Virus record (IMG/VR): IMGVR_UViG_3300021963_000022 | Reading direction: 5' to 3' (one strand) | DNA from: a virus | Taxonomy: Duplodnaviria > Caudoviricetes | Length of the DNA stretch: 64,000 nt | Shown here: positions 1,521 through 53,375 of the stretch, piece after piece | Position numbering within the stretch: position 1 is the first letter of the stretch | Layout of the letters: each line of letters begins with the position of its first letter | Notes under the pieces: generated by a model | Databases searched by the model: none | What the model was told of the DNA's origin: nothing | What the model saw: the letters and a program-made list of their open reading frames with translations, nothing else | Translations under genes and position numbers: made by a program

Positions 1521-2574
1521 GATTAGACCAGTTGTTAAAGAAGACCTAGCCGATACAATTAAATCCGGTTTATATAAAGTAACTGGCGGTGGATTATATG
1601 GTCAGACTGGTCAACAGGCTGCACTTAAAAATAATTTCATAAAGAAATTTGCCAATCAATTAGCATTAAATGTTAAATCTTCAAAAAGTGCAGGAGTAGG
1701 TGGATTTGATTTAGATGATTATTTAAAAACATATGCCGCACAATATGGTTGGAATTTAACTCCTATAGAAATAGAGAATTTAACTAAACTTTCTACACAA
1801 GCCGGACCTAATCCAGGCGCAGGATCTTTACAAAAAGTTGCTAATTATATGTATATATTAGCAGACAAATACCGTGACTCTAGAAAAACTGGTGGTGCAC
1901 CAGAAGCTTCAGGTGGATCTACTCCGAGACGTGGTGGAGGTGGTGCACCAACTCAACCTACTGGTCCTACAACACCTAGCCCTACGACACCTACTGGTCC
2001 TACAACACCTAGCCCAACAGGACCAACGACACCTAATTCAAAAAATTCTCCTGCACTCACTTCACCGGTCGCACCTCTAAATAAACAAATAAATGCCAAA
2101 CCCGAAGCTTCAACTAGTACACCTAATCAAACTAGTGTAACTGCTGAGAAGATAATGGATGCATTGGGTCAACTATATAGGACACCAAATTCAGCTAGTG
2201 ATTTAGACAAGATTTTACGAGATGTTGCGTATCTACTAAGCAGAAAAGATGCCTCAAGATATGCTCATGTAATCAAAGATTTAACTTCAGGTATAGGTGG
2301 TTCAAGCGCAGCCGGAACTAAAGGTACACCTTATCCCGGCGATCAAGGAACACAACAAAATACTAGACCAACAAGTACTCAGTCTACTACACCCCCTAAA
2401 GATGCTGAACAATCAATGCCGGGATATAATAAAGCTGCCGATGAATTGTCACGTAAAATGAAATCTAATTTACCTAGAGATCCATCTATTTCAAAAGCAT
2501 ACCGTCCAGGTAGTAGACCACAAGATGTTAGTGATATACAACCAAAAGAGTCTAAAAAGTTTAAGAGAAGATAA
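1504..2574 (+). CDS. hypothetical P/T/G-rich protein, candidate internal head protein
   Basis: N-terminus (M)MKISEI resembles a capsid-targeting leader; low-complexity linker; TAATG overlap with next gene. Confidence 0.75.
   Translation: MMKISEIRPVVKEDLADTIKSGLYKVTGGGLYGQTGQQAALKNNFIKKFANQLALNVKSSKSAGVGGFDLDDYLKTYAAQYGWNLTPIEIENLTKLSTQAGPNPGAGSLQKVANYMYILADKYRDSRKTGGAPEASGGSTPRRGGGGAPTQPTGPTTPSPTTPTGPTTPSPTGPTTPNSKNSPALTSPVAPLNKQINAKPEASTSTPNQTSVTAEKIMDALGQLYRTPNSASDLDKILRDVAYLLSRKDASRYAHVIKDLTSGIGGSSAAGTKGTPYPGDQGTQQNTRPTSTQSTTPPKDAEQSMPGYNKAADELSRKMKSNLPRDPSISKAYRPGSRPQDVSDIQPKESKKFKRR
1957..2015 (+). repeat. coding direct repeat CCTACTGGTCCTACAACACCTAGCCC x2 (33-nt period, PTGPTTPS)
   Basis: Exact 26-nt copies at 1957-1982 and 1990-2015. 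Confidence 0.9.
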
Positions 2575-3881
2575 TGGATCTAAGTAACATTGTTGATAAA
2601 CTTTCAGCACTACTATTGACTGAGGCTGAATTAGCCAAAGCTCATTTAACGCATCCTGAAGATATTGTTATCATGCAAGGTAGTCGAGGGCTAGATACCG
2701 CATTGAAACACATGACAGCTACTATACAACAGCCAGATCAAGCTACAATCAAATGGGACGGTAGTCCTGCATTGATATTTGGATACGGTCCTGATGGTAA
2801 ATTCAGAGTCATGGACAAGCATATGTTTGACAAAGTAGATGACAGTGGTAGAAATGTATTCAGCCCTAAACAGTTTGCACAATATGATGTTAACAGAGGT
2901 GTAGACAGGGGTACTATGATACAGGATGTTACTAATCTATGGCCTGGATTACAAAAAGCAACTCCTAAAACACTAGGGTATTATTGGGGTGATGTACTGT
3001 TTGGTGCTCCGTTAGCAGACACAAATGGATTCTATATTTTTAGACCTAATCCTACAGGTATTGAGTACAAGATTCAAGCAAATAGTGATTTTGCAAAACA
3101 ACACATAACAGGTAAACGTGCTGGTATAGCTATACATCAGTTCATACCTGCTGATGCACATCAAAAAGCAATAGAAGCTACACAAGAAGCTAGACGACAG
3201 GGTAAAAAAGAAACGTACAAAGCAACTGATTTTGCACAATCACTCAATGGTAGCTTAGGACAACTTCAAGTTCCACCAAAGTCTAGTATAGCTATACTTC
3301 CTAGTAAGATGGCAATCACTCCTGAAATGAATTCCGGAGGATGGGATGATGCTATTGAACGAGTTAAGAAAATGTTAGCACCACTAGCTCCTAGCATTGA
3401 CAAGTTTGTAGCTGGAATACCCTTAGCCAACAAAACAACAAATGATGCTTTCCGTGGATTTCTTACCAGCTATATTAACTATGAAGTACGAAAGATTGCA
3501 CCTAGCTTAAGTGCTAGTCAAACACCCAAACAACGTGATGCTGTTATCAATAATGCATTAAAGATGATGGGTAAAGATTTTATGAACTATGTTCAAACAA
3601 AATTAGCTACTGCAAAGATGACAGATAACAATAAACAAATGATATTGAATCACATCCAAGCTAATCAAAAAGGTATGCTATATTTGTATAGAGTTTGGGG
3701 TGAGATATACAAGTTAAAAATGCACATATATAATGACTTAGACATTGCTGGGAAGCAAAGTCCAGTCAAGGGATACTTACAGGGTGGTGCAGAGAGCCAA
3801 GAAGGCTATGTAGCACACGGTGTCAAATATGTAGACCGTTTGGGTGGTTTTAGCGCACAGCACTTAGCTGGACGTGGCTAA
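2574..3881 (+). CDS. ligase-like covalent nucleotidyltransferase
   Basis: KWDG (motif I KxDG), WGD (motif III-like), QEGYV (motif IV) and a following Lys (motif V-like). Confidence 0.6.
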   Translation: MDLSNIVDKLSALLLTEAELAKAHLTHPEDIVIMQGSRGLDTALKHMTATIQQPDQATIKWDGSPALIFGYGPDGKFRVMDKHMFDKVDDSGRNVFSPKQFAQYDVNRGVDRGTMIQDVTNLWPGLQKATPKTLGYYWGDVLFGAPLADTNGFYIFRPNPTGIEYKIQANSDFAKQHITGKRAGIAIHQFIPADAHQKAIEATQEARRQGKKETYKATDFAQSLNGSLGQLQVPPKSSIAILPSKMAITPEMNSGGWDDAIERVKKMLAPLAPSIDKFVAGIPLANKTTNDAFRGFLTSYINYEVRKIAPSLSASQTPKQRDAVINNALKMMGKDFMNYVQTKLATAKMTDNNKQMILNHIQANQKGMLYLYRVWGEIYKLKMHIYNDLDIAGKQSPVKGYLQGGAESQEGYVAHGVKYVDRLGGFSAQHLAGRG

Positions 3882-11385: not shown

Positions 11386-12771
11386 TTAAATCACTATGCT
11401 AAAATCTCCTGGAGCATACCATCCTTCATACGCTTTCATCCATGACATACCATCAAAACGATATTGTACACCAGTGGTTAAGTTAGTAACAAATTGAATA
11501 TCGCTAATTATCGTAGAATTAAAACTTACTATCCAATTAGTACCATCAAACTCAATAATGTCATTTGCATGTGCAACTAAGTTACCCCATGCGTTTGATG
11601 TTTCAATATTGTTATCACTACCGATATCTTCAACAATCAAATAACGCTGACCAATTACAGGTTCAGGTAATCCATTTTCTTCACTAGGAGTGCTAGGTCC
11701 TTTTTGCAATGGATTTATAACGCTATCAACTGCATCCATAGTGTTGGCCGGTAAGGTATCAGTATCAATGTTATATATTAATAATCTATCATCTGTTGGG
11801 TTAAATGCTATAGTACCTACAATATCAGTATCCATATATGGGTTTTGTAACCATATCTGACTGATACCCGGTCTAACAGTACCGTATACATTTAAAAAGC
11901 TTTCCCATATAACCTCACTATTAGGACCTGCAGGTGTATCTAATGTATTGTTGCCAGGTGTAAATGCTGCACCATCTGGTAATACTTGTAGTGTATTACC
12001 TAATAGTAATATTTTATATCCATATGGAGTTATCTTTTGACGAGTACCTAATAGTAATTCATCGTCTTGCATATCTGACAGTGCATTACCCTTAAAGATA
12101 CTAGCAATAATCTTGTAGATGATATTCATCTTAGTAATCTTAGCCGCACTACTAATCCATATAGGCATGTAGAATTTCCAAGTCATCACATCAACAGGAT
12201 TGCCGCTACCTTGTGGAATAACACGACTACTAAATGTTAATCCATCTTGATATACAACACTTAAACTAGTCCAATCAATAAAGTTATCAGTGCTTTGTAT
12301 TTCCATGCTTGGATTAAACAATACACCTAATTGCTCAATTAATTCTAATTTCTGATTATAGTTCGTAGTCCAAAAGTCTACGGTAATTCTTAACGTATAG
12401 GGTACAGGCATGATACGTTCAACACTAAATGCTTGACCTTGTGTTGTTTCATATTGACCTGTTTGCTGATTGAATGTCTTTTGACGAACATCAAGTTGTT
12501 CAATAAAATAAGGATCTTGTGTTCTACGTTGGTCGTATTCAAGTCCGGTAATATAGTAAGTAATCAGTGGTGCGCTAGGCAAACTGCTAGGACTGTTTTC
12601 AGCTATTTGAGTAGCTGCCATACGACTTTGATCACCGTACATGATTGGCACACGTACTTGAATGTCATTGCCTGCAGGGTCTTTCCCTTTAGTAACTTGC
12701 CAGTTACTAAAGATTCTTGCGAATTGAACCAGAAACCTGCGGATCTGATTATCATAAAAGTAAGAAGCCAA
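11386..12771 (-). CDS. gp15: tail completion/sheath stabiliser (gp15-like) with C-terminal extension
   Basis: YFYDNQIRRFLVQFARIF start, RVPIMYG and PVPY motifs; TTG start at 12771 with AAGGGA RBS. Confidence 0.7.
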   Translation of the reverse strand: MASYFYDNQIRRFLVQFARIFSNWQVTKGKDPAGNDIQVRVPIMYGDQSRMAATQIAENSPSSLPSAPLITYYITGLEYDQRRTQDPYFIEQLDVRQKTFNQQTGQYETTQGQAFSVERIMPVPYTLRITVDFWTTNYNQKLELIEQLGVLFNPSMEIQSTDNFIDWTSLSVVYQDGLTFSSRVIPQGSGNPVDVMTWKFYMPIWISSAAKITKMNIIYKIIASIFKGNALSDMQDDELLLGTRQKITPYGYKILLLGNTLQVLPDGAAFTPGNNTLDTPAGPNSEVIWESFLNVYGTVRPGISQIWLQNPYMDTDIVGTIAFNPTDDRLLIYNIDTDTLPANTMDAVDSVINPLQKGPSTPSEENGLPEPVIGQRYLIVEDIGSDNNIETSNAWGNLVAHANDIIEFDGTNWIVSFNSTIISDIQFVTNLTTGVQYRFDGMSWMKAYEGWYAPGDFSIVI

Positions 12772-12785
12772 AATTAAGTCCCTTG

Positions 12786-13467
12786 TATAAATAATAGTGT
12801 AACTCGCGGTTTCGGACACCCAGTTACTCTAAAGCTATCAAGGAGCATCAGCATGACTATTTATCTTTATAAAAAGACCCATCGTATTACTGGATTACAG
12901 TACTTAGGTAAAACTACATCAAACGACCCTCACTCATATACCGGATCTGGTAAATATTGGAAATCACATCTAAAAAAACATGGATCTGATTATGATACTG
13001 AAATTTTAAGAGAATGTGCAACTAATGATGAAGTTAAACAATGGGGAGAATATTACAGTATATTATGGAATGTAGTTAGCAGTAATGATTGGGCTAATTT
13101 AAAGACAGAATCAGGTGATGGCGGTGATCCAGGACCAATAGGTCGTAGCAAAATTTCAAAGGCCCAAACAGGAAGAAAGCATACTTTTGAAGAAAATGTG
13201 AATAAAAGTAAAAGACAAACCGGGATAAAACGTTCTCAGGAATATCTTGCAAAAAAGATAGGTAAAAAATATAAAAAACCTAAAATACGAAGCAGTCCTA
13301 ATAAAAATAAAGGTCGTCCACTTCCGCAAGAATGGATTGATAAAAGTGCAAAAACTCGCACAGGTATGAAATACAAAATAGTAGAGTGCCCTCATTGTCT
13401 AAAACAAGGCGGTTCTTGTACAATGCCAAGATGGCACTTTGATAATTGTAAACTTAAAAAAGCTTAA
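12786..13467 (+). mobile_element. free-standing homing endonuclease unit (late promoter, hairpin leader, ORF)
   Basis: Perfect TATAAATA 12786-93, stem GTAACT/AGTTAC, AAGGAG RBS; sits antisense between the gp14-like and gp15-like genes. Confidence 0.7.
12853..13467 (+). CDS. GIY-YIG (Seg-like) homing endonuclease with basic NUMOD-like C-terminus
   Basis: IYLYKKTH..GLQYLGKT, YTGSG, conserved E and NL motifs; K/R-rich repeats; CPHC motif. Confidence 0.8.
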   Translation: MTIYLYKKTHRITGLQYLGKTTSNDPHSYTGSGKYWKSHLKKHGSDYDTEILRECATNDEVKQWGEYYSILWNVVSSNDWANLKTESGDGGDPGPIGRSKISKAQTGRKHTFEENVNKSKRQTGIKRSQEYLAKKIGKKYKKPKIRSSPNKNKGRPLPQEWIDKSAKTRTGMKYKIVECPHCLKQGGSCTMPRWHFDNCKLKKA

Positions 13468-17966: not shown

Positions 17967-18728
17967 ATGGCAGGTGCTACATTAGACCAATTAAAAGAAG
18001 ACTTATTTAGAAATTTACGACTACGTTTAGGTGACGGAATAGTTGACCTTGAGATTGGGCCCGAACACTTTGAATCAGCATATAGATATGCTATTAGTAT
18101 CTATCGTCAAAGGGCACAGAATTCTACTGAAGAATCTTATACATTGTTGACGTTAGAAAAGAATGTAGATGTTTACACTTTGCCTAGCGAATTCATTAAC
18201 GTAAGACAGTTATTTCGTAGAAGTATCGGGATGGAGACTGGTCCTGGTGCATCAGCATTTGATCCATTCTCAAGTGCTATTTTGAACACATACTTGCTTA
18301 ACTATAATTATGCAGGTGGTCTAGCTACATATGACATGTATGCAGGATATGTTGAACTAGCCGCACGTATGTTCGGTGGATATGTAATATTCACATTTAA
18401 TCCAGTAACTAAAGAATTACGTATTGTACGTGATGTAAAAGGTAGCGGAGAGCATGTATTGATTTGGGCAGACATTCAGAAGCCTGAAGCAGTATTGCTA
18501 CAGGATCCGGGTGCAGGTGTTTGGATTAGCGACTGGATCTTAGCTATCCTTAAGGGCATCATCGGTGAAGCACGTGAGAAGTTTGCTAGCATTGCAGGAC
18601 CAGGTGGCGGTACAAGTTTGAACGGTGCAGCCATGAAAGCAGAATCCAAAGAGATGCAAGCACAGTTACTAGAAGACTTAAAGCGTTATGTAGATTATAG
18701 TCAACCATTGACTTGGGTACAAGGTTAA
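17967..18728 (+). CDS. gp13: neck protein (gp13-like)
   Basis: GATAAATA 17941-48; LRLG..VDLEI start, W..DW.LA.LK..IGEAREKF and GGTSLNG motifs. Confidence 0.7.
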   Translation: MAGATLDQLKEDLFRNLRLRLGDGIVDLEIGPEHFESAYRYAISIYRQRAQNSTEESYTLLTLEKNVDVYTLPSEFINVRQLFRRSIGMETGPGASAFDPFSSAILNTYLLNYNYAGGLATYDMYAGYVELAARMFGGYVIFTFNPVTKELRIVRDVKGSGEHVLIWADIQKPEAVLLQDPGAGVWISDWILAILKGIIGEAREKFASIAGPGGGTSLNGAAMKAESKEMQAQLLEDLKRYVDYSQPLTWVQG

Positions 18729-19373
18729 ATGAGAGCTATTGAATTTTTACAAGAGAGCTTAACTCCGCCTAATAAGTTTTTATCTAAAGCAGAAAAATTA
18801 AAAGCCGGCAATAAAGTTTTCTATAAAGGCAAATTAGTAGGTATTGCCACCGGTGAAATTAATGGTGATAGAGTTATTTTTAAACCTTTTGCATCTTACG
18901 GTAACTCTGGCAATTTTGCTAGTTTACCTATTGACCAAATAAGCTTACGAGAAGGTAAACATGTTCAAGGTGTGGCGGAAGGCTTCCCTCAACCGGGACC
19001 AAGTTCAGGTGCTCCACAACAGTTTGGCTCCGATGCTAAAATACAAACTCGCCAAATGACTGTAAAAGATATTATATCATCTATACCCGGTGTGCCTTAT
19101 TACAATAATGTAGTCGATGATTGGGACGCCAAAGATTATAGTTGGAATACTACAGAAAAGGTTATAGAGTATGCTACTTACTTAAAGGATCATCCAGAAA
19201 GTTTAGCAAAGTTGCCACCAATCATAGTATTAAACGGTAAGTTTGAAGATGGTGCCCATAGGGTATCTGCCATATGGTTGCTACAACAAAGAATGGATCC
19301 TAAAAATCCATTGTGGAAAAATGCTAAATTAAATGTTCAATTTGTTAAGCAAGGTATGGCGGAAGATAATTAA
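18729..19373 (+). CDS. modular candidate internal head protein with ParB/Srx-like cassette
   Basis: MRAIEFLQE leader; QGVAEG and KQGMAED linkers; PPIIV..FEDGAHRVSA motif. Confidence 0.75.
   Translation: MRAIEFLQESLTPPNKFLSKAEKLKAGNKVFYKGKLVGIATGEINGDRVIFKPFASYGNSGNFASLPIDQISLREGKHVQGVAEGFPQPGPSSGAPQQFGSDAKIQTRQMTVKDIISSIPGVPYYNNVVDDWDAKDYSWNTTEKVIEYATYLKDHPESLAKLPPIIVLNGKFEDGAHRVSAIWLLQQRMDPKNPLWKNAKLNVQFVKQGMAEDN
18966..19367 (+). mobile_element. in-frame 384-bp cassette between 16-bp direct repeats
   Basis: CAAGGTGTGGCGGAAG at 18966 and CAAGGTATGGCGGAAG at 19350 (1 mismatch), same frame. Confidence 0.55.
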
Positions 19374-20512: not shown

Positions 20513-23500
20513 ATGGCACTAGTATCACCAGGCGTACAAGTTACGATCATTGACGAAAGTCAATACGTTCCATCAGCCTCAAATTCAGTCCCTTTAATTA
20601 TCTTAGCTACCGCACAGAATAAAACAAATGCAGCCGGTACTGGGGTAGCAGCGGCAACTACAAAAGCTAACGCTAATAAATTATATCAAGTAACAAGTCA
20701 ACGTGACTTAGTAAACTTATACGGAAATCCATTTTTCTATAAGACAAGTACAAATGTACCTATTCAAGGGTATGAGTTAAATGAATATGGTCTACTAGCC
20801 GCTTACTCATTATTGGGTACAACAAATCGTTGCTTTGTACTACGTGCAGACGTAGACTTAGCAAGTTTAACAGGATCTATTTCCCGTCCATTGGGTGACC
20901 CAGCTGATGGCACTTATTGGTTAGATACTACATCAAGTGATTGGGGAATTTACGAATGGAACAGTACAACACAGAAATTTGTAGAGAAGACTCCGTTAGT
21001 AATTACTGACAGTACAGATTTGACTGGCGACTATCCAAAAGTTAGTTTAGGTAATGTTGGTAGTTACGCAGTTATTGCATCCCAACCAACAACAGGTCCT
21101 ACAAGTAATTCTACTTATTTTTATAAAAACTTGGATAATGTCTGGGTTCAATTGGGTGGTGTTGACTGGAAGAAGAGTGTCCCTACTGCGATCGGTGCAA
21201 CTTACAATCCTACAGTAACAGTGGGTGACAAGTTTGAAATTATTACTTCTAATTTTACATTAGAAATTACAGTACCTAACAGTCCTAATAACGATATTGA
21301 TGGTGTAGTATCTGCTATCAATGATTATGGAATCGATGAAGTATTTGCGGAAAATGTAGGTAACAAGTTATACATATATTCTGCACAAGTAAGTGCTAAT
21401 TCTTATGTTACTGTAAACAATCTAACAGGAACTCCTTTAGAAGATTTAGGGTTAGTAGATGGTAAAACGTATTACCAATCACTTACTACATATGGCACAT
21501 CTGCTCAGATGCCATTATGGGGTAGCTCACAATCTCAACCTAGAATATCAGGTTCAGTATGGATTAAGACAAGTGTTACAGGCAGTGGTGCAAATCTATT
21601 ACTTTCTAAGTACAATAGTATACTAGATCAGTATATTGTACAAAATTGCAATATGTATTCTTCTGATTGGGCAGCTACATATGCGTTAGACAGTACAGGA
21701 GGAAAAGCTATTCCAGCTGGTTCTACTTATGGTCAATATGGTTATATGAATAGTTGGACCAGTGCTCCTGTTATTCTTAAAGAAAGACTGGCAACAGGTG
21801 CTACAGTAGCGACTGGTACAGACACAAGCCCAACATTTACTAACAATGCATGTATTAATGTACAAGTTAGTGTACCGGGTAGTAGCAGTTTGTCTAGTGT
21901 CTACACAGTGCAAATGCCATCAAGTGGTACAGTTGATGCAGTAGATTTTGTTACTGCATGGCAAGCTGCTGGTATACCAAATACTACAGCAATTGTTACG
22001 AATGAAGGTTCAATTCAACTTTCACACACTCAAGGTGGTCAGATTATCATTGATGACTATGTTAATAATTTTGGTGTTGTGCAAGGTACTAGCAATGGAA
22101 CTATTTCTGATTCAGGTTTAGATGGTGCAATTAATGCAGGATTTGGTCCTTTCAGTGTGTTTACAGCAGTAGGCGAAACAACAGGCGGTACCGGACAAGC
22201 TGAACCAGCTGGTCCAGCAACGTTTACTATTACTGCAGCTGGTCTTAGTTATACTGCAAATGCTACTCCAGTAAATGCCGGTGAAAACTATTCAGTAGGT
22301 GACGTATTGACTATTACAGGTACTCAACTAGGCGGTGATGCTCCTGCTAACAATTGCTCTTTGATAGTAACTGCAGTTGATACACTATCTGGTGCTATTA
22401 TTAGTGCTAGCGTATTGCAAACAAGTGTTGCTAAAGCTAGATATACTACTCAAATAAGTAACTGGATAAGTTTAGATTATACAGCTAATGAAGGTGCTCC
22501 TGCATCTAATCCACTCAACAACACTAACTGGTTCTATTCAGTAGCTGATGAAGTTGATATTATGGTTAACCAATCAGGTACTTGGAAAGGTTACAGAAAT
22601 GTAAACTTCAATAGCGATGGTTTCCCGTCAGCAACTGGTTCACCTGCAACTGATCCCGATGGTCCAATCTGTGCCGCAGTTGCTCCAACTGAACAAAGTG
22701 ACGGTACTGCGTTGGTATATGGTGATCTATGGATTAGCACAAGTGCTGCTGACCTAGAAAACTATCCAGTATTAAGTCGTTGGCAATCAGTTGACGGTGT
22801 AGATCAATGGGTGTTAGTTGATACTACTGACCAAGTAAGTAGTGAAGGTGTATTGTTTGCTGATGCACGTTGGGCTAGTTCTGGCGCAGTTGATCCAGTT
22901 AACGATCCGATCCCAACAATCGTTTCTATGCTAACAAGCAACTTTACAGATTTAGATTGTCCAGACCCTGATTTGTACCCAACAGGTATGTTGTTATTCA
23001 ACACACGCCGTAGTGGCTACAATGTAAAACAGTTTAGAACAAACTATTTCACTGCAAACAACTATCCAAGTGGTTCATTACCGAGTCAATCATATACATG
23101 GGTATCCGCAAGTGGTCTAAACACTAACGGTTCACCATATATGGGTCGTAAAGCTCAACGTAACATAGTTGTACAAGCATTGCGTTCAGCAGTATCTACA
23201 AATATGTCAATTCGTGAAGAGGACACATATTTCAACTTAATGGCTGCTCCTAACTATGTTGAATTACAGCCTGACATGGTTACATTGAACAATGAGAGAA
23301 ACAATACAGCGTATATCGTTGGTGACACTCCATTGCGTTTAGCAGACCAAGCAACTGATATTCAGAATTGGGCTACAAATGCAGCCGGTGCAAGCTCATC
23401 AGGTGAGGATGGTTGGGTTACACGCAACGAATACTTAGGTGTATTCTATCCAAGTGGTATCACAACAGATACAACTGGTGCACAAGTTGTTGTTCCTGCA

Positions 23501-24088
23501 AGTCATATGATGTTACGTACATTCTTACGAAACGATGCTGTAGCTTATCCTTGGTTAGCGGCAGCAGGTACACGTCGTGGTACTATTGACAACGCATTGA
23601 ATATTGGTTACTTAGATGCAACTACTGGTGAATTCCAAGTTATCAAGAATCGTCAAGGCATTCGTGATGTATTGTATACAAATCAAATCAACCCATTAGC
23701 ATTCTTTACAGGTGTTGGATTACTAAACTATGGTAATAAGAACAGTAAAGACACAATGAGTGCGATGGATAGAACAAACGTAGCACGTTTAGTTTGCTAC
23801 ATCCGTGAACGTCTACAAGTTCTTGCAAGACCATTTGTGTTTGAGCCTAATGATGCATTAACACGTAATCAAATTGCAGGTGTTGTACAAACATTGTTTA
23901 TTGACCTAGTTGCAAAACGTGGTTTATATGACTACATCGTACAGTGTGATACACAAAATAACACACCAGCACGAATCGATAGAAATGAATTATGGATTGA
24001 TATTGCAATTGAGCCAGTGAAAGCGGCTGAATTCATTTACATCCCGGTTCGTATTGTTAACACTGGGGCCTTATCAGCATCAGCATAA
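20513..24088 (+). CDS. gp18: tail sheath protein (gp18-like)
   Basis: MALVSPGVQV.IIDES start; YPW.AAAG..RG, INP, RTNVARL, FVFEPND and IAIEPVKAAEFIYI C-terminal motifs. Confidence 0.95.
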   Translation: MALVSPGVQVTIIDESQYVPSASNSVPLIILATAQNKTNAAGTGVAAATTKANANKLYQVTSQRDLVNLYGNPFFYKTSTNVPIQGYELNEYGLLAAYSLLGTTNRCFVLRADVDLASLTGSISRPLGDPADGTYWLDTTSSDWGIYEWNSTTQKFVEKTPLVITDSTDLTGDYPKVSLGNVGSYAVIASQPTTGPTSNSTYFYKNLDNVWVQLGGVDWKKSVPTAIGATYNPTVTVGDKFEIITSNFTLEITVPNSPNNDIDGVVSAINDYGIDEVFAENVGNKLYIYSAQVSANSYVTVNNLTGTPLEDLGLVDGKTYYQSLTTYGTSAQMPLWGSSQSQPRISGSVWIKTSVTGSGANLLLSKYNSILDQYIVQNCNMYSSDWAATYALDSTGGKAIPAGSTYGQYGYMNSWTSAPVILKERLATGATVATGTDTSPTFTNNACINVQVSVPGSSSLSSVYTVQMPSSGTVDAVDFVTAWQAAGIPNTTAIVTNEGSIQLSHTQGGQIIIDDYVNNFGVVQGTSNGTISDSGLDGAINAGFGPFSVFTAVGETTGGTGQAEPAGPATFTITAAGLSYTANATPVNAGENYSVGDVLTITGTQLGGDAPANNCSLIVTAVDTLSGAIISASVLQTSVAKARYTTQISNWISLDYTANEGAPASNPLNNTNWFYSVADEVDIMVNQSGTWKGYRNVNFNSDGFPSATGSPATDPDGPICAAVAPTEQSDGTALVYGDLWISTSAADLENYPVLSRWQSVDGVDQWVLVDTTDQVSSEGVLFADARWASSGAVDPVNDPIPTIVSMLTSNFTDLDCPDPDLYPTGMLLFNTRRSGYNVKQFRTNYFTANNYPSGSLPSQSYTWVSASGLNTNGSPYMGRKAQRNIVVQALRSAVSTNMSIREEDTYFNLMAAPNYVELQPDMVTLNNERNNTAYIVGDTPLRLADQATDIQNWATNAAGASSSGEDGWVTRNEYLGVFYPSGITTDTTGAQVVVPASHMMLRTFLRNDAVAYPWLAAAGTRRGTIDNALNIGYLDATTGEFQVIKNRQGIRDVLYTNQINPLAFFTGVGLLNYGNKNSKDTMSAMDRTNVARLVCYIRERLQVLARPFVFEPNDALTRNQIAGVVQTLFIDLVAKRGLYDYIVQCDTQNNTPARIDRNELWIDIAIEPVKAAEFIYIPVRIVNTGALSASA

Positions 24089-44731: not shown

Positions 44732-45496
44732 ATGGATCATTATCAAATTTTAGGGGTAGCAAAAAACGCTACTCCTGACGAAGTAAAAAAAGCATATCGT
44801 AGACTTGCAAGTATTCATCACCCGGATAAGGGCGGTGATACTGCCCAGTTCCAAAAAATTCAAGTAGCATATGACACATTAAGCGACCCGCAGAAAAAAC
44901 AAGACTATGACAATCCACATGCACAAGGTTTCCCCGGTGGATTTCACTTCTCTAACCAAGGATTTAACATCAACGATTTATTCGGTCAAATGTTTAGTCA
45001 GAGACAACAACCTTCTAATCCAACCTACAAAACCGATGTATGGATATCATTGGAACAGGTGTACACTAGCGGAGAACAGGTATTACATTTCAATGGTAAT
45101 AACCTTAACCAAACCATAAGGGTAGAAATACCACAAGGTATAGAAAACGGTCAACAAATACGCTATGAAAATATGCTTCCTAACGCTATACTTATAGTAG
45201 AGTTTAGAGTTAAACCTCATCATAAATTTGAAAGAAGAGGTATGAACTTGTACTCTACACACAAAATAAGTGTTTTGGATCTAATCGTAGGTGATAGCTT
45301 TGAGTTTACTACTATCAGTGGTAAAACTTTAGCAGTAACAGTTAACCCAAAAACACAACCTGGAAGTTTACTACGTATTTCGGGACAGGGTTTAATTAGA
45401 AATGGTATAGCAGGGGACCAAATGATCTTGCTTGATCCATTCATTCCTGATATAATTGACAGTTCTATCACTAATAGCATTATTGCTAGTAAATAA
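44732..45496 (+). CDS. dnaJ: DnaJ/CbpA-type co-chaperone (no Zn finger)
   Basis: J domain with HPDKGG, short G/F region, DnaJ C-terminal motifs. Confidence 0.9.
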   Translation: MDHYQILGVAKNATPDEVKKAYRRLASIHHPDKGGDTAQFQKIQVAYDTLSDPQKKQDYDNPHAQGFPGGFHFSNQGFNINDLFGQMFSQRQQPSNPTYKTDVWISLEQVYTSGEQVLHFNGNNLNQTIRVEIPQGIENGQQIRYENMLPNAILIVEFRVKPHHKFERRGMNLYSTHKISVLDLIVGDSFEFTTISGKTLAVTVNPKTQPGSLLRISGQGLIRNGIAGDQMILLDPFIPDIIDSSITNSIIASK

Positions 45497-45514
45497 CTTA
45501 AAAGAGGTAACATA

Positions 45515-47791
45515 ATGAATCATAGCCCAGAAATTGAACATATTATTGAACAGGCAATAGGCCTAGCAAAAGTTCGTAGACATGAATATTGCACTATTGA
45601 ACATTTATTATTGTCTCTAATAACATATTCACCCTTTAGTAAAGTTTTAGACGACTTTGGAGTTGATACTGCAACTATGGTTAAAGATGTAAGTGGATAC
45701 CTAGATAACCAACGTAGTATTGAAGCATCTTCTGATATTGAACAAGAAATTCAACCACGTAAAACAAATAGCTTAGAACGTGTAATGAATCGTTCGGTAA
45801 CACAAGTATTGTTTACTGGTCGTAAATTTGTTACAACTATTGATTTGTATCTTAGCATCAGTAACGAAACAAATACACACGCACATTACTTCTTCTTAAA
45901 GTATGGTATTAATAAAAACGAATTTATACCATTCTGGCAAAAATACTACAAAAACAATGAAGGCGAAGCACCATTAACTACCGATCGGGCTGATGAAATC
46001 TTGGAAGAATATACAACCAACTTAACTGATTTGGCCCGTCAAGGTAAACTTGAACCAATGATAGGTCGTACTAAAGAAGTAGATGACATAGTTAACGTTC
46101 TTGCTAAACGATTTAAATCAAATGTATTGATGGTAGGTGATCCTGGTGTAGGTAAAACTGCAATTGCAGAAGGTCTAGCAAGTAAAATCATCAACGATGA
46201 GGTACCCAAGTTCTTAAAGGATCATGAGTTGTATTCGCTTGAAGTGGGATCATTACTTGCTGGTTCTAAATATCGTGGTGACTTTGAAGAAAAGATTAAA
46301 TCGGTACTAGAAGCATTAGTTACTAAAAAGAAAGCAGTACTATTCATTGATGAAGCGCATACTATGAAAGGCAGTGGTTCAGCTAACAATGGTAGTGTTG
46401 ACTTTGCTAACATGATTAAACCGGCTATTACTAAAGGTAACTTGAAAGTTATTGCTAGCACTACTTGGGAAGAGTACTATGAATCATTTGAGAAGGATCG
46501 TGCATTGATGCGTAGATTCTATCGTGTGGGCGTAGATGAGCCGGATCGTGATTCTACTATTCGTATCCTTAAAGGTCTAAGCACACGATTGAATGACTTC
46601 CACTCAGTAAACATTACCGATGATGCAATTACAGCGGCAGTTGATAGTGCTACACGTTATATGCATGACCGTAAGAATCCTGACAAATCCATAGATTTGA
46701 TTGACGCGGCTTGTGCCAAACAACGTGTATTAGGTAATCAACAAGTAGATATTACAAAAGAGTTAGTATATGAACAAGTTGAACGCATGACTAAAGTTCC
46801 TGCTGATAAACTAAACAGTGATAGTTATGAACGTATCTTTAGTTTAGAAGCTAACATTAAGAATAAGCTTTATGGTCAAGAAGATACAGTTGATAAAGTA
46901 CTTGAGCGTATCTATGTGTCGTTTGCAGGTATCGGTAATCAAACACGACCAATGAGTAGTTTTTTGTTCTTAGGCCCGACTGGTACAGGTAAAACTGAAC
47001 TAGCTAGATTATTGAGTAGTAGTTTAGATATGCCCTTACTCAAATATGATATGTCAGAGTATTCAGAGAAGTATTCAGTTTCTAGTTTGATTGGTCCCCC
47101 ACCGGGTTATGTTGGATTCAATGATAGCCAAGTATCAGGTGGACGATTGATTAATGACTTAAGCAAGAATCCTCACAGTATATTGTTGTTTGATGAAGTT
47201 GAAAAAGCTCATCCTGATATATTTAATATCTTCTTGCAGATGTTAGACGAAGGACGTATTACCGGATCTAATGGTAAAGAAGTTAACTGCAAGAATACTA
47301 TCATTATCTTAACAAGTAATTTAGGTGCAAGTGATAGTGAACGAAATCAGATCGGGTTTGGTAATCAAGAACGTACAGGTGATGATGACCGAGCATTAAA
47401 AGAGTTCTTCAAACCAGAGTTCCGTAATCGGTTAGATATGATATGTAAGTTCACTAAACTTGATATGTTGGCTATTAAGAAGATTGTTATCAAGTTTACC
47501 GATGAGTTGAAGAAATCGTTAAAAGAAAATAACGACATCACAATCAATCTGACTGAACCTGTAGTAGAATATCTAGCAGAGCATGGATATGATAGCAAGA
47601 TGGGTGCTAGACCATTGAGTAGAAAAATTGATGAACTTATTAGAGTTCCTTTAAGTAAGAAGATTCTATTTGATAGAATCAAAGGTGCACATATCAATAT
47701 CAATTTAGTAGATTACAAGATTATGTTTGATGTACAACCTAAATTAACAGCAACGGTGGGTGAGAATGGGATTATTGAAATCAGTCAGTGA
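45515..47791 (+). CDS. clpA: ClpA-like two-ring AAA+ ATPase
   Basis: Clp N domain (HLLLSL), GDPGVGKT, YRGDFEE, IDEAH, GPTGTGKT, GYVG, LFDEVEKAHP, IGF loop, GARPL; no ClpB M-domain insert apparent. Confidence 0.9.
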   Translation: MNHSPEIEHIIEQAIGLAKVRRHEYCTIEHLLLSLITYSPFSKVLDDFGVDTATMVKDVSGYLDNQRSIEASSDIEQEIQPRKTNSLERVMNRSVTQVLFTGRKFVTTIDLYLSISNETNTHAHYFFLKYGINKNEFIPFWQKYYKNNEGEAPLTTDRADEILEEYTTNLTDLARQGKLEPMIGRTKEVDDIVNVLAKRFKSNVLMVGDPGVGKTAIAEGLASKIINDEVPKFLKDHELYSLEVGSLLAGSKYRGDFEEKIKSVLEALVTKKKAVLFIDEAHTMKGSGSANNGSVDFANMIKPAITKGNLKVIASTTWEEYYESFEKDRALMRRFYRVGVDEPDRDSTIRILKGLSTRLNDFHSVNITDDAITAAVDSATRYMHDRKNPDKSIDLIDAACAKQRVLGNQQVDITKELVYEQVERMTKVPADKLNSDSYERIFSLEANIKNKLYGQEDTVDKVLERIYVSFAGIGNQTRPMSSFLFLGPTGTGKTELARLLSSSLDMPLLKYDMSEYSEKYSVSSLIGPPPGYVGFNDSQVSGGRLINDLSKNPHSILLFDEVEKAHPDIFNIFLQMLDEGRITGSNGKEVNCKNTIIILTSNLGASDSERNQIGFGNQERTGDDDRALKEFFKPEFRNRLDMICKFTKLDMLAIKKIVIKFTDELKKSLKENNDITINLTEPVVEYLAEHGYDSKMGARPLSRKIDELIRVPLSKKILFDRIKGAHININLVDYKIMFDVQPKLTATVGENGIIEISQ

Positions 47792-49030: not shown

Positions 49031-50851
49031 ATGGCGGTAGTTGTTGTTTATGGTGGAGGGTTTCAACCCTTTCATGCAGGACATTTGAGCAGTTATGTAG
49101 AGGCTAAACGTGCCTTTCCTGATGCTGAATTCTTTGTTGCCGCCAGCAATGATGTTAAACAACGACCTATTCCTTTTAAAGTAAAGAAGTTTCTAGCACA
49201 ACAAGCAGGTGTTAGAGATGCGTTTGTTGAAGTAAGGCAGCCGCTCAATCCTAAAGAAATTTTAGAAATATTTGACCCTGCAAAAGATATATTTGTATTA
49301 GTACGTAGTGAGCGTGACCCTATGCCATACACTAAAAAAGATGGTAGTCCCGCATACTTCCAACCATTTGTCAGTTTAGACCAATGTAATCCATATGGTA
49401 AAAATGCTTATGTACTAGTCACAAAGAAAAAAGATTTTACTGTTAATGGTCAAGAAGTATATTCTGGATCACAAGTACGTGACATGTATACTAATGCAGA
49501 CGATGTAAATAAAGAACAAATCATTAGTCAGTTATATCCTAAGAGTAGCCACAAAGATACAATCAAACAAGTTTTGGATCAATATTTGCAATCTACACCT
49601 AAAACAGTTTTGGAGCCCAAAGTGCCAGCAGCTAAACAATTAAAGAATAAGAAACTAGCAGAGATGATTAAACAAGCTAGACCTTTACTAAAAGAAGCAT
49701 CAATTGAAAAGAAAGTAAAGTTTCTTAAGTTGTTAAAAGATTATGCAATAACAAATATAGAAGAAGCAGTTAGTCCTACGTATGGTGACGTAATTAAAAC
49801 ACGTAATAAGATAGCACAACAAACTAATCCTACTCGTAATAAGTTTATATGGAAACGTCCTAATCAGATCCGTGGTAGTTATACTGACCAACAATTAATT
49901 TCACAAGGTTTTCGTAAATCAGCACAAAACAATCTATGGGGCGGTACACAAGAAATGTGGGATCGTTTATCAGAATCATTGAATGAATTTGCCCCACCAA
50001 GTAGAGATGACGGCGGTGGCGAGAATGATAGAAATCGTAGAATAAGAAAACTATTAGAAATTGCCATACAAGTAGCAAAAGAAAAAAATGTCGATGAATT
50101 GGGTATGATACATGCTATGAATATGATAGCAGGTGATGAATTTTTTAATACAGCAGTTGAAGGTATATTACCTGATATAACAGATAAAGAATATATGTTT
50201 GTGCTACAAAGTGCTTATAAAACAGTAAAGCAAGGTTTAGCAGAAGCAAAGAAAAAAAGAAAAAAGAAAAGTAAAAACCGTAGTATTGGAAGATATTTCT
50301 TTCCAGGATATAATTACTACGGTGGCGGCAGTGGAGAATCTGGTGAGAGTGGAGGAGATGGCGGCGGTGAAGGTGTGGCGGAAGGCTCCTTAAACGAACT
50401 TGCACCAGGTGGGAATGGTGGCGACGGAGGAGATGACAGATATATCCCGCCAAATTTTGGTAAGCCCTACGCGGCAAAATATCTAGGCAAGAATGAATTT
50501 GAAGTATTTTGCCGCCCGGATAATGATCCATCTAAAGTGATTAAGTTACGAGCCATCGTTCAAAAATATGGTTTAGAATTTGATGATGACAACTATGATG
50601 AAGAAACTGGCGAAGGCGGCCGATGGTATTTAGACAGTCCCGGTGCTGTATGGCTTGGTTGGCAATATGGTGAAATCCCATTACCTAAGGCCATTGATCA
50701 AGTACGTAATCCAGGACATATTCACGATTTAGTTACCGACTATCTTACCAATGCACATAATTTTGAGATACAAAAAATAGCAATAGAATATTTTGGTTTT
50801 ACTACAGATGGTGAAATGAATGAATCTGTGGATTATTTAGACGAGAAATAA
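49031..50851 (+). CDS. HIGH-family (cytidylyltransferase-like) nucleotidyltransferase followed by an array of Glu-delimited modules
   Basis: YGGGFQPFHAGH motif; SGSQVR (KMSKS-like); linkers IEE|A, LSE|SLNE|F, KQGLAE|A, EGVAE|GSLNE|L, MNE|S. Confidence 0.8.
   Translation: MAVVVVYGGGFQPFHAGHLSSYVEAKRAFPDAEFFVAASNDVKQRPIPFKVKKFLAQQAGVRDAFVEVRQPLNPKEILEIFDPAKDIFVLVRSERDPMPYTKKDGSPAYFQPFVSLDQCNPYGKNAYVLVTKKKDFTVNGQEVYSGSQVRDMYTNADDVNKEQIISQLYPKSSHKDTIKQVLDQYLQSTPKTVLEPKVPAAKQLKNKKLAEMIKQARPLLKEASIEKKVKFLKLLKDYAITNIEEAVSPTYGDVIKTRNKIAQQTNPTRNKFIWKRPNQIRGSYTDQQLISQGFRKSAQNNLWGGTQEMWDRLSESLNEFAPPSRDDGGGENDRNRRIRKLLEIAIQVAKEKNVDELGMIHAMNMIAGDEFFNTAVEGILPDITDKEYMFVLQSAYKTVKQGLAEAKKKRKKKSKNRSIGRYFFPGYNYYGGGSGESGESGGDGGGEGVAEGSLNELAPGGNGGDGGDDRYIPPNFGKPYAAKYLGKNEFEVFCRPDNDPSKVIKLRAIVQKYGLEFDDDNYDEETGEGGRWYLDSPGAVWLGWQYGEIPLPKAIDQVRNPGHIHDLVTDYLTNAHNFEIQKIAIEYFGFTTDGEMNESVDYLDEK
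50369..50387 (+). repeat. cassette-junction repeat copy GAAGGTGTGGCGGAAGGCT
   Basis: 18-nt exact identity (AAGGTGTGGCGGAAGGCT) with 18967-18984; degenerate copy CAAGGTTTAGCAGAAG at 50231. Confidence 0.85.
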
Positions 50852-50907
50852 AAATATTTCGGGCCCCTCTTTATAGTGTAAATATCTTTATCTTTAAAGA
50901 GGACCAA

Positions 50908-51932: not shown

Positions 51933-53375
51933 ATGCAGTTAAACGAACTAGATAATTTCAGCCTCAGCGATGCGGTCTTCTTTCATGACGAGTTAAATCC
52001 CGCTATATTTGCCGGTGACCATATGAAATACGATGTTAGAGAACAACTATTACATATTGCTGAAGACTTTGTAGAACATCTTGGCATACCGAATATAGAC
52101 ATAGTAGACATTACTATATCAGGTAGTAGTGCAGCCTATTCGTATACAAAATACAGCGATATTGACCTACATATTCTAGTTGACATGAACAAATTCTCCG
52201 ATGATGATGTATATCGTGAACTATTTGATGCTAAAAAAGTCGTATATAATGACCAACACGATATTGTTATTAACGGATATGAAGTAGAGTTATACGTACA
52301 AGATACAAATCAGCCTGTAATTAGTTTAGGTGAGTATTCAGTAATGAATGACAAGTGGATCAAACTTCCTAGAAAACGTAGAGCACATTTAGATCAGGCT
52401 GCTACTAAAGCCAAGTTTGAGAAGTTATATAAGTTATCAGAATATGCTGTAAAATCTAAAAATTTAGAAAAGATAAGACAAGTATTAAAGACAATTAAGA
52501 AGTATAGACAAGCAGGATTAGATGTTCATGGGGAGTTTGGTCCTGAGAATTTAGCATTTAAAGCAATACGTAGTAAAGGTATAATAAAGCATCTATATAA
52601 TATGGTAGATGAATTGCATAGTAAACAGTTAAGCATACCTGAGAGTAAATTGTTAGGTCAACTAGATGAAATCATTGACATGCCTCCAGTAAAAAAACGA
52701 TTGGATATAGAATCAATGTATAATGATTTACAGTACAAAATTAGATACCATGAAGCCAGTGAATTAACTTCAATAAAATTTTCAATGAAAAATCGTGTAT
52801 TTCGTGATGGAGATCATGGATTAAAATTTTTCTTATTTAATAAAGATAAACCAGTCTTTTATCTTGGTATAAGTAAATTCCATGATGGATTTAAAACAGG
52901 TGCGGTTGCTAGTAGTCCTGAAGTACAGGGTCAGGGTTTAGGTTGGAAATTATATAAAGCTGTTAGTGAGTATCTAAATGTACCGTTATATAGTGACAGC
53001 ACACAAACACCTGACAGTAAGAACGGCATTTGGCAGAAATTGATTCAAAATTATCCTAAGCAAGTTATAGGATATAATCAAATATTGCGTAGAAATGTTC
53101 CTATTAATAACATATATCAAACATTGCCTCAAGATCAATTAAAAGATATAGAGGATGATACTAGAAAAAATACATTATTATTAAAGTTATTGCCCATAGC
53201 AGTAACAGATATGTATGAGGCATCAGGTTATATCCCTAGTGAAGGTGAAAAGAACGACCCTAGATGGGAACGTGCATTAAGTATAGATGTGCATCCAGAT
53301 ACAATGAAAAAGCAGGCTAAGAAATTCGGTTGGAAGATTAGTCGTGCCGGAATTCCCCCATTGCTAAGAAAATAA
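51933..53375 (+). CDS. Pol-beta-fold nucleotidyltransferase fused to a GNAT module and a short C-terminal module
   Basis: SGS-x10-DIDL and EVELY; LDE|II junction; VQGQGLGWKLY acetyl-CoA motif A; MYE|ASGY junction; AATAAATA 51921-28. Confidence 0.75.
   Translation: MQLNELDNFSLSDAVFFHDELNPAIFAGDHMKYDVREQLLHIAEDFVEHLGIPNIDIVDITISGSSAAYSYTKYSDIDLHILVDMNKFSDDDVYRELFDAKKVVYNDQHDIVINGYEVELYVQDTNQPVISLGEYSVMNDKWIKLPRKRRAHLDQAATKAKFEKLYKLSEYAVKSKNLEKIRQVLKTIKKYRQAGLDVHGEFGPENLAFKAIRSKGIIKHLYNMVDELHSKQLSIPESKLLGQLDEIIDMPPVKKRLDIESMYNDLQYKIRYHEASELTSIKFSMKNRVFRDGDHGLKFFLFNKDKPVFYLGISKFHDGFKTGAVASSPEVQGQGLGWKLYKAVSEYLNVPLYSDSTQTPDSKNGIWQKLIQNYPKQVIGYNQILRRNVPINNIYQTLPQDQLKDIEDDTRKNTLLLKLLPIAVTDMYEASGYIPSEGEKNDPRWERALSIDVHPDTMKKQAKKFGWKISRAGIPPLLRK

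Follow-up and report, generated by a model that had tools for sequence, protein, structure and literature searches.

A gene whose single open reading frame (ORF) joins an enzyme to a row of unrelated domains raises the question of how those domains came together, and of what a phage would do with such a chain. The gene considered here lies on the plus strand at 49031..50851 of a 64,000-nucleotide stretch of DNA from a virus of the Caudoviricetes (Duplodnaviria; IMG/VR record IMGVR_UViG_3300021963_000022), referred to below as the window, and its open ORF encodes a 606-aa protein (P0001) composed of a nucleotidyltransferase core, a cassette array and a tail. Comparison with related sequences indicates that the cassettes are very probably separate evolutionary units that can be gained, lost or put in a new order and that pass between distant phages as well as from one gene to another. 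Exchange is shown here to take place at short conserved junction sequences, chiefly at a 17-nt in-frame word for (Q/E)-G-V-A-E|G. As to the fate of the protein, the reading to which we give somewhat better than an even chance is that of a capsid-targeted polyprotein of effector cassettes, which would be cut at the junctions by the head protease.

Modules between the core and the tail

All the sequence strings on which the initial annotation had based its division of the gene were found in the ORF translation where it had placed them. The core (aa 1-245, 49031..49765) ends with YAITNIEE (aa 238-245) and is followed on the same strand by module M1 (aa 246-315, 49766..49975), a small alpha/beta unit that starts with AVSPTYG and ends with DRLSE (aa 311-315). 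Module M2 (aa 316-405, 49976..50245) comprises an SLNEFAPP leader (SLNEFAP at aa 316-322), a Gly/Asp linker and a helical bundle, and ends with KQGLAE (aa 400-405). The third segment, M3 (aa 406-451, 50246..50383), is Lys-rich from its AKKKRKKK start (aa 406-413) and then Gly-rich up to GEGVAE (aa 446-451). Module M4 (aa 452-598, 50384..50824) has a GSLNELAP leader (aa 452-459), a Gly/Asp linker and a beta-rich domain (aa 473-598) ending with GEMNE (aa 594-598), and the tail SVDYLDEK (aa 599-606) with the stop codon occupies 50825..50851.

An AlphaFold2 model of aa 246-606, built from an alignment of 107 rows, contained folded units at aa 246-314, 332-404 and 473-598, with predicted local distance difference test (pLDDT) values of 56-79 for M1, 71-79 for M2 and 65-95 for M4. 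Values below 50 were obtained at aa 315-331, 405-472 and 599-606, which correspond to the junction strings, the Lys/Gly-rich M3 and the tail. The module region was thus predicted as separate folded units split by disordered junctions, not as the one continuous fold that would have spoken against a modular chain, and in the model the junctions sit in disordered linkers. Four unrelated modules had been proposed; three of them are folded and unrelated, while the third is a disordered spacer according to the prediction. The modules showed no mutual BLAST similarity outside the leaders, in agreement with the earlier description of them as unrelated, and LNE[FL]AP occurs just twice in the six frames of the window, both times inside this ORF. 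No Pfam family was matched by M1, M2 or M4, nor by most modules of the relatives, and Foldseek searches (PDB and AFDB clusters) with VIA-align gave no convincing fold relative for these three, the best structural match being one of Z 6.7 for the helical M2. A match of M4 to AcrIF13 (Z 5.2) was rejected as being within the noise range.

Homologues were collected by a word-index search (568 sequences) and by an exhaustive HMMER search (1424 cluster representatives at E<=1e-3); architectures were compared in 247 fetched sequences, and Pfam domains were scanned in a sample of 62. The core is N-terminal and the chain ends with DY[LIVM]xE(K) in 154 of the 247, with lengths of 245-1102 aa. It had been predicted that the core and the DY(L/I)xEK tail would be constant while the modules vary in number, kind and order, and this held in these 154 relatives, which have no leader. 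Between core and tail the sampled homologues carry HD/HD_4, GNAT, ParB_N, Zeta_toxin/AAA_33, Sigma70_r4 and Amidoligase_2 domains, as well as DUF6934, DUF6321, DUF5824, DUF5661, PGDYG and the Tat signal. Judged by these family assignments, the cargo domains (e.g. ParB_N, HD, GNAT, Zeta_toxin, Amidoligase_2 and Sigma70_r4) are of the conflict-effector type.

Each module of P0001 was found in other settings. M1 occurs in core-less proteins (P0200, P0205, P0226 and P0243) and at other positions in the chain; M3 mostly accompanies M2, yet it is missing in P0006-P0008; and M4 precedes M3 in P0011 and M2 in P0164, the reverse of the order seen here. M4 is also found in other long proteins, and as the first module or in short proteins behind an M-R-L-S-E-F-like leader (P0153, P0164 and P0192). 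The core itself lies mid-chain in the longer proteins P0142, P0155 and P0209, and cassettes are common to this gene family and to three other genes of the window (orf18729, orf51933 and orf58935). M2 is 86-93% identical among proteins whose cores are only 34-45% identical to the core of P0001. The window is syntenic with a complete 348.7-kb IMG/VR genome (G001) at ~70-75% DNA identity, and in this comparison M2 has 91% DNA identity and its flanks ~72%. At the protein level M2 is 96% identical to its G001 counterpart, with a divergence at four-fold sites of 0.21, and the core is 46% identical, with a divergence of 0.47. The lower divergence of M2 at four-fold sites points to recent exchange rather than to constraint alone. 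M2 is also present in a 244-aa protein (P0166) between a ribosomal-protein-L11-like N-terminus and a DYLEEK tail, which is probably a chimeric contig or gene call.

Residues 1-245 are a genuine HIGH-family nucleotidyltransferase, formed by a Rossmann-like domain (aa 1-186) and a helical hairpin (aa 200-246), with the motifs HAGH (aa 15-18, 49073-49084, plus strand) and SGSQVR (aa 145-150, 49463-49480, plus strand), the second of which we take to be an ISxTxxR-type signature. The core passes the Pfam PF01467 cut-off marginally (22.1 bits against 21), and this family is detected at E<=1e-4 in 39 of the 62 sampled homologues. An alignment of 93 cores showed G9, H18, P46, K52, D96, Y127 and R150 to be invariant and H15, G17 and S145 to be conserved in at least 90% of the sequences each. 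The AlphaFold2 model of the core (pLDDT 87) retrieved NadD, NadM and PPAT as the top Foldseek matches (E 1e-5, prob 1.0, identity 12-17%), among 35 matches at E<=1e-3 and prob 1.0 that included FAD synthetase; TM-scores against known adenylyltransferases were 0.4-0.6. HxGH, SxxxxR and the Rossmann-like fold are common to the phage core and the NadD/NadM/PPAT adenylyltransferases, whereas an additional conserved KKDGSP loop and the helical hairpin distinguish the phage core from them.

No substrate-specific model fits the core, the NCBIfam equivalog models being far under their cut-offs. A PDB sequence search with the core returned only noise, PHROGs has no family for the 606-aa protein, and among GenBank phage records a single uncultured one matches the core (29% identity), with no match to the modules and no cultured relative. 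A two-enzyme route by which phages rebuild nicotinamide adenine dinucleotide (NAD) has been described (10.1101/2024.02.11.579819); a NARP2-type role of this kind for the core is without support, because the two complete relatives (G001 and a second genome, G002) have no NAMPT gene. In at least six proteins of other phages (P0155, P0162, P0189, P0208, P0209 and P0238) a DUF6267 (ligase-like) domain immediately precedes the same HIGH core within one chain; in the window this domain is encoded by a separate gene (2574..3881, plus strand), 45 kb from the nucleotidyltransferase gene. These fusions suggest a functional link between the two proteins, as in a two-enzyme pathway.

Insertion borders and the junction word

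Three contigs from other samples that are syntenic with the window (L001, L003 and L005) allowed the borders of inserted cassettes to be located. Their identity to the window is 98-99.9% over the upstream genes and the gene as far as the junction, and 80-96% beyond it. The L001 gene (1022 aa) has three cassettes added in frame between M3 and M4, the L003 gene (726 aa) has one, and the insertions in all three contigs are flanked by the junction word. In each comparison the two alignment blocks have 19-26 nt of the window in common (50370-50395), from which it follows that copies of the junction, in direct repeat, stand on either side of the insertion. Every internal cassette border in L001 carries CAAGGTGTGGCGGAAGGC, which reads QGVAE|G. 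The cassette added in L003 is ParB/Srx-like, and in the window it is found between two copies of the word in another gene, at 18729-19373. An unbiased scan of indel borders across all the fetched proteins recovered the repeated strings xAE|G, GSLNEF, LNEFVPP and [LIV][NT]E. The gene copy in L005 (L005:6001-9298) is frameshifted, the chain stopping after M1 with M2-M4 in other frames, either through a sequencing error or through decay.

The variable architectures could in principle be artefacts of metagenome assembly or gene calling, with contigs misjoined at the repeated word; all the data are metagenomic, and besides the frameshifted copy in L005 the proteins P0166, P0101 and P0118 look chimeric or truncated. 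The repeat is, however, only 17-26 nt long, which is shorter than usual assembler k-mers. Synteny is intact on both sides of every variant, and the reading frames remain open up to 1022 aa. P0001 is not an assembly artefact, since it is on record in four independent contigs and its variants come from separate samples; P0003 was likewise found on three contigs from two archives and P0004 in two samples. We consider the chance of a general artefact to be close to negligible.

In this gene the junction word is AAGGTGTGGCGGAAGGC (50370..50386, plus strand), a GC-rich 17-mer reading (E)GVAE|G that marks the crossover and insertion point and is a putative protease site. A second exact copy is located at 18967-18983, giving two in the window against 0.07 expected. 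Its codons are rare in this phage (GTG 10%, GCG 7% and GGC 16% of their codon families), and identical junction codons recur in phages that are only ~70% identical. The exact 17-mer is present in more than 120 IMG/VR stretches among the matches listed. At the 80 loci that were examined, all 108 word matches are in the frame that reads GVAEG, nearly all within long ORFs (median 556 aa), the few exceptions being ORFs cut by contig ends, and all 28 spacings between neighbouring copies are divisible by 3. Rare-codon use, excess copies, recurrence and a constant frame together indicate that the word is conserved as DNA as well as peptide.

The leader that follows the word behaves differently. The two SLNE(F/L)AP sites of the gene differ at 7 of 24 bases, all of the differences being synonymous or F/L, so that SLNEFAP is kept as a peptide and not as DNA. 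It had been proposed as the 5' signature of the cassettes. This is borne out in that many cassettes start with (G)SLNEF(A/V)PP and a Gly/Asp linker, and that the string recurs at indel borders, but the element repeated at the DNA level is the preceding QGVAE|G word.

Conservation of the word beyond what the peptide requires, across such divergent phages, and insertions bracketed by exact direct repeats would both be expected of a true site-specific cassette system, integron- or homing-like, in which a dedicated nuclease or recombinase recognises the 17-nt word. Homing endonucleases are, moreover, abundant in T4-type phages. On the other side, no tyrosine integrase (PF00589) was detected in the two complete relatives, with a control search positive in 14 of 14 genomes, nor among the window ORFs that were scanned. 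The repeats at the junction are direct and not inverted; the word has no palindromic structure, and shuffled sequence folds as well as the junction does (z = 0.67). Indels are bordered by GSLNEF, LNEFVPP and xLTE as well, which would be anticipated if homology drives the exchange. Short homologies suffice for T4-type recombination, and the shuffling at PeSLs, conserved intergenic promoter/stem-loop recombination points of T4-type phages, proceeds without a dedicated enzyme (PMC2839356). A dedicated enzyme is accordingly given a small probability. As the same junction stands at both ends of every cassette, ordinary homologous recombination of the phage could add or remove cassettes in frame, and each incoming cassette would bring its own release site.

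Putative head-protease motifs, leaders and the proposed fate of the chain

The initial annotation had not remarked that the junctions fit the sites of T4-type prohead proteases, nor that the leaders fit capsid-targeting sequences, as their sequence motifs indicate. The window belongs to a T4-type jumbo myovirus, with genes for a tail sheath (20513-24088) and a T4 gp15-like protein (11386-12819), and its complete relatives are T4-type jumbo phages too. A gp21-type prohead protease (PF03420) is encoded by both complete relatives, G001 (locus L020, ORF 1426-2079) and G002 (97 and 89 bits), adjoining a gp22-like scaffold, and both also have a gp23-like capsid protein whose N-terminal part ends with LLAE|S, where T4 gp23 is matured. 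The T4 gp21 protease cleaves behind L/I-X-E, and processing is blocked if the Glu at P1 is replaced by Asp; the T4 capsid-targeting sequence is formed by the first 10 residues, MKTYQEFIAE, of internal proteins, and Alt is trimmed at both ends, C-terminal processing included (PMC9026906; PMC8442874).

A hydrophobic-x-Glu motif is present at every junction, with Glu strongly preferred over Asp. Of 46 sites that precede cassette leaders, 41 have V, L or M at P3 and 40 have Glu at P1; the string QG[VLMI][AST]x[GA] has Glu in 109 cases and Asp in four, and the acidic residue of the leader is Glu in 115 of 117. In G001, QG[VLM]xE[GAS] occurs seven times against 1.55 expected, six of the seven being in leader proteins or in the nucleotidyltransferase gene.

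The internal SLNEF peptide matches the N-terminal leaders M-R-x-x-E-F-x-x-E of stand-alone cassettes, and where a cassette takes first place its GSLNEF leader appears as M-R-L-S-E-F or M-R-L-N-E-F (P0153 and P0164). Genes that bear the word often start with leaders of the kind of MRAHEFIVE, MRATEFIIE, MKINEIISE or MNFKELFE, and the leaders of G001 include MRAIEFVTE, MRAKEFITE and MRATEFIIE. In G001 a tight leader pattern was found at four of 384 N-termini and at one of 1926 internal Met residues, an enrichment of ~20-fold. True N-terminal leaders are carried by 25 homologues, in addition to the internal SLNEF copies.

Of 173 leaderless homologues 148 end with the tail, all 25 true-leader proteins are without it, and no protein has both; two apparent exceptions were mis-called starts. 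It follows differing last modules and is usually preceded by [LIVM]-[ST/N]-E. Its codons differ synonymously between homologues, which shows that the peptide is what selection maintains, and the D-Y-L-E-E at its centre is similar to the E-F-I-x-E of the leaders. By analogy with T4 Alt and its C-terminal processing, the DYLxEK tail is probably a C-terminal targeting signal or pro-peptide that replaces the leader. Other recurrent endings (STLLLKH, EELAKK, NMRALRLIK, FMGH and (K/R)LSGL/LAGI) mark further polyprotein families at loci L042-L121 and in P0200-P0243, and the last of these resembles the KRLAGL end of the gp22-like scaffold in G001. Such endings may be alternative capsid-docking tails.

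Given a gp21-type protease and no integrase in the two complete relatives, the best model for P0001 is a capsid-targeted polyprotein. Its independently folded cassettes would comprise the NadD/PPAT-like core, the three folded modules, the disordered spacer and the acidic-aromatic tail. The junctions, [V/L/M]-x-E followed by G, A, S or F, would be cleavage sites of the prohead protease, and the (G)SLNEF leaders would be internal copies of the N-terminal M-R-x-x-E-F-x-x-E leaders, working like the MKTYQEFIAE of T4. Once loaded into the prohead, the polyprotein would be cut into modules and delivered with the DNA to the host, where these could act as early effectors. The junction itself could then be a dual-coded element, a ~17-nt homology patch for in-frame splicing that is also the head-protease cut freeing each domain, a proposal that we advance tentatively.

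Alternatively, P0001 could be an uncleaved multidomain polyvalent enzyme acting as a single chain, either in the cytoplasm or inside the virion, its junctions being flexible linkers kept as harmless recombination points, with no involvement of a prohead protease. Polyvalent proteins typically mix domains such as ParB, HD, GNAT and kinase, and some of them enter the particle without being processed (PMC5512222); the DUF6267-core fusions suggest that some domains cooperate in cis. P0001 begins directly with the core (MAVVVVYGGGF), with no N-terminal leader, and conservation of the word at the DNA level could alone explain the constant Glu. A pure linker, however, needs neither two Glu sites four residues apart nor an SLNEF peptide conserved across synonymous changes. 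At P3 and P1 the junctions agree with the motif of the protease, Glu being much commoner than Asp, and the same motif is found at the putative capsid-protein maturation site of the relatives. Junction motif and T4-like leaders co-occur in the same genes, and stand-alone cassettes start with the same leader peptide. An uncleaved chain is on this evidence unlikely, although it is the most serious of the alternatives.

Several observations weigh against the polyprotein model. Cleavage and packaging are deduced from motifs, of which [LIVM]-x-E, being short, can be found within the folded domains too, and the steady Glu at the junctions could partly reflect DNA homogenisation of the word instead of protease specificity. 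The protease, scaffold and capsid genes are known only from syntenic relatives of ~70-75% DNA identity, and P0001, as noted, has no N-terminal leader. The T4 targeting literature offers no precedent for internal or C-terminal targeting signals, and the tail is confined to the nucleotidyltransferase gene in G001, a pattern not to be expected of a signal with a general targeting role. No enrichment of the T4 late promoter word TATAAATA was observed in the window, nor does a copy precede the gene, which leaves late expression without support. The immediate neighbours (ClpB-like, DnaJ and glycosyltransferase-like) are not head genes.

Upstream, DnaJ and a 758-aa ClpA/ClpB-type double-AAA chaperone are encoded at 44732-47791, just before the cassette gene. 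Downstream, the spacer at 50852-50907 after the stop codon is conserved in L008-L018 as TTTGAC.C.CTTGTTTTGATGTAAATAATA or a variant of it, and may be a promoter or ribosome-binding region of the following glycosyltransferase-like gene.

Three other genes of the window, all on the plus strand, draw on related cassettes. The gene orf18729 (18729..19373, 214 aa) has an MRAIEFLQE leader, one module and then, as its second half, the ParB/Srx-like cassette with a DGAHR motif; this cassette is bracketed by the junction word at 18967-18983 and 19351-19367 and is 91-92% identical to cassettes inside the nucleotidyltransferase genes P0003, P0004, P0019, P0021 and P0024. The whole gene is missing at the syntenic place in G001, where positions 18728 and 19370 of the window map to adjacent bases. 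The neighbouring leader gene orf51933 (51933..53375, 480 aa) starts with MQLNELDNF and shares modules with nucleotidyltransferase-family proteins of other phages; a QLNEL(N/D)LF string stands just after the core in P0027, P0040, P0057, P0059, P0063 and P0081. Near aa 60-85 the orf51933 protein carries the GS...DxD signature of a Pol-beta-type nucleotidyltransferase; it also matches phrog_36119, and residues 242-422 correspond to a module found in P0172, a member of the nucleotidyltransferase family studied here. The third leader-bearing polyprotein gene, orf58935 (58935..61679, 914 aa), has an MKISKLLE leader, uses the same cassette pool and contains a Tat-signal-like segment. Such segments (PF10518) were detected at aa 318-337 of orf58935 and in P0010 (L005:6001-8211), with E-values of 8.5e-5 and 6.6e-5, and sit mid-chain in these leader-bearing polyproteins. 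If the chains are cut at the junctions, the Tat-like module would start with an export signal and, once injected, could go to the host periplasm.

Should the polyprotein model be correct, it would describe a widespread general mechanism by which giant T4-type phages diversify the proteins that they inject with their DNA, no fewer than 1400 representatives of clusters at 50% identity being known for the core gene alone. One scheme would unite three ideas known separately so far, namely peptides that target proteins to the capsid, processing by the head protease, and the shuffling of cassettes at short conserved sequences, and it would explain why the borders of cassettes show conservation at the DNA level and at the peptide level alike. 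If the junction is dual-coded as well, the system would amount to a plug-and-play "domain integron" for injected proteins, with several genes per genome in very many uncultured phages. A leader, or a junction word on each side, could serve as a sequence rule for recognising injected effectors in uncultured phages, and this rule would yield a large catalogue of small domains, such as M1, M2 and M4, as candidate anti-defence proteins. The arrangement would also be a design, provided by nature, by which several cargo proteins could be loaded into T4-like capsids.

Comparison with known systems

The array had first been described as integron-like. As an architecture this stands, with a fixed core and tail and insertions that fall exactly between repeated junctions; as in an integron, unrelated cassettes are placed on a fixed platform with recognisable borders. 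The integron mechanism fails, since IntI, the hairpin-forming attC and the Pc promoter logic have no counterpart in the phage array. Integron cassettes are, furthermore, promoterless genes, whereas those of the phage are in-frame domain segments of one protein.

The internal proteins of T4 and Alt offer the nearest likeness for the putative packaging signals. MKTYQEFIAE is closely resembled by the phage leaders M-R-x-x-E-F-I-x-E, the putative cut sites likewise have a hydrophobic P3 and Glu at P1, and a gp21-family protease is present in the relatives. The putative cargo cassettes of the phage are diverse, fast-evolving and anti-host effector-like, as is T4 cargo, and Alt is a precedent for a C-terminal propeptide (PMC9026906, PMC8442874, PMC3012670). 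In T4, however, each internal protein has its own gene and one N-terminal signal, while here several cassettes are fused with internal copies of the leader, and some chains, unlike the T4 internal proteins, have a conserved C-terminal tail and no N-terminal leader.

Polyvalent proteins are mosaic multi-domain polypeptides of phages and conjugative elements, for which co-delivery with DNA has been predicted (Iyer et al. 2017, PMC5512222). Their mosaic chains combine ParB/Srx, HD, acetyltransferase and kinase domains, as those of the present family do, and in both cases the genes lie among late or virion genes. Of the hub domains of polyvalent proteins, no zincin-like metallopeptidase or ArdC-N domain was detected by Pfam in the 62 sampled homologues, although divergent versions could escape detection. 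The phage domains are much smaller than those of polyvalent proteins, and a single stereotyped junction, with its conserved DNA word, links them; the predicted processing enzyme is the head-maturation protease here and a built-in peptidase in polyvalent proteins. The polyvalent-protein concept accounts for mosaic fusions of effectors, but neither the stereotyped junction nor the logic of head-protease processing is part of it.

The nearest precedent for the shuffling mechanism is provided by the PeSLs (Arbiol et al. 2010, PMC2839356; PMC4122927), which were likened to integrons by the authors of the former paper (PMC2839356). No description of an in-ORF, in-frame shuffling element that doubles as a peptide signal was found in the literature. 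Both PeSLs and the phage word are short conserved sequences of the T4-type lineage that flank variable units and act as crossovers. A PeSL is an intergenic element of ~100 bp that moves whole genes, whereas the word of 17-26 nt lies within the ORF, moves domains in frame and, unlike a PeSL, would double as a peptide signal.

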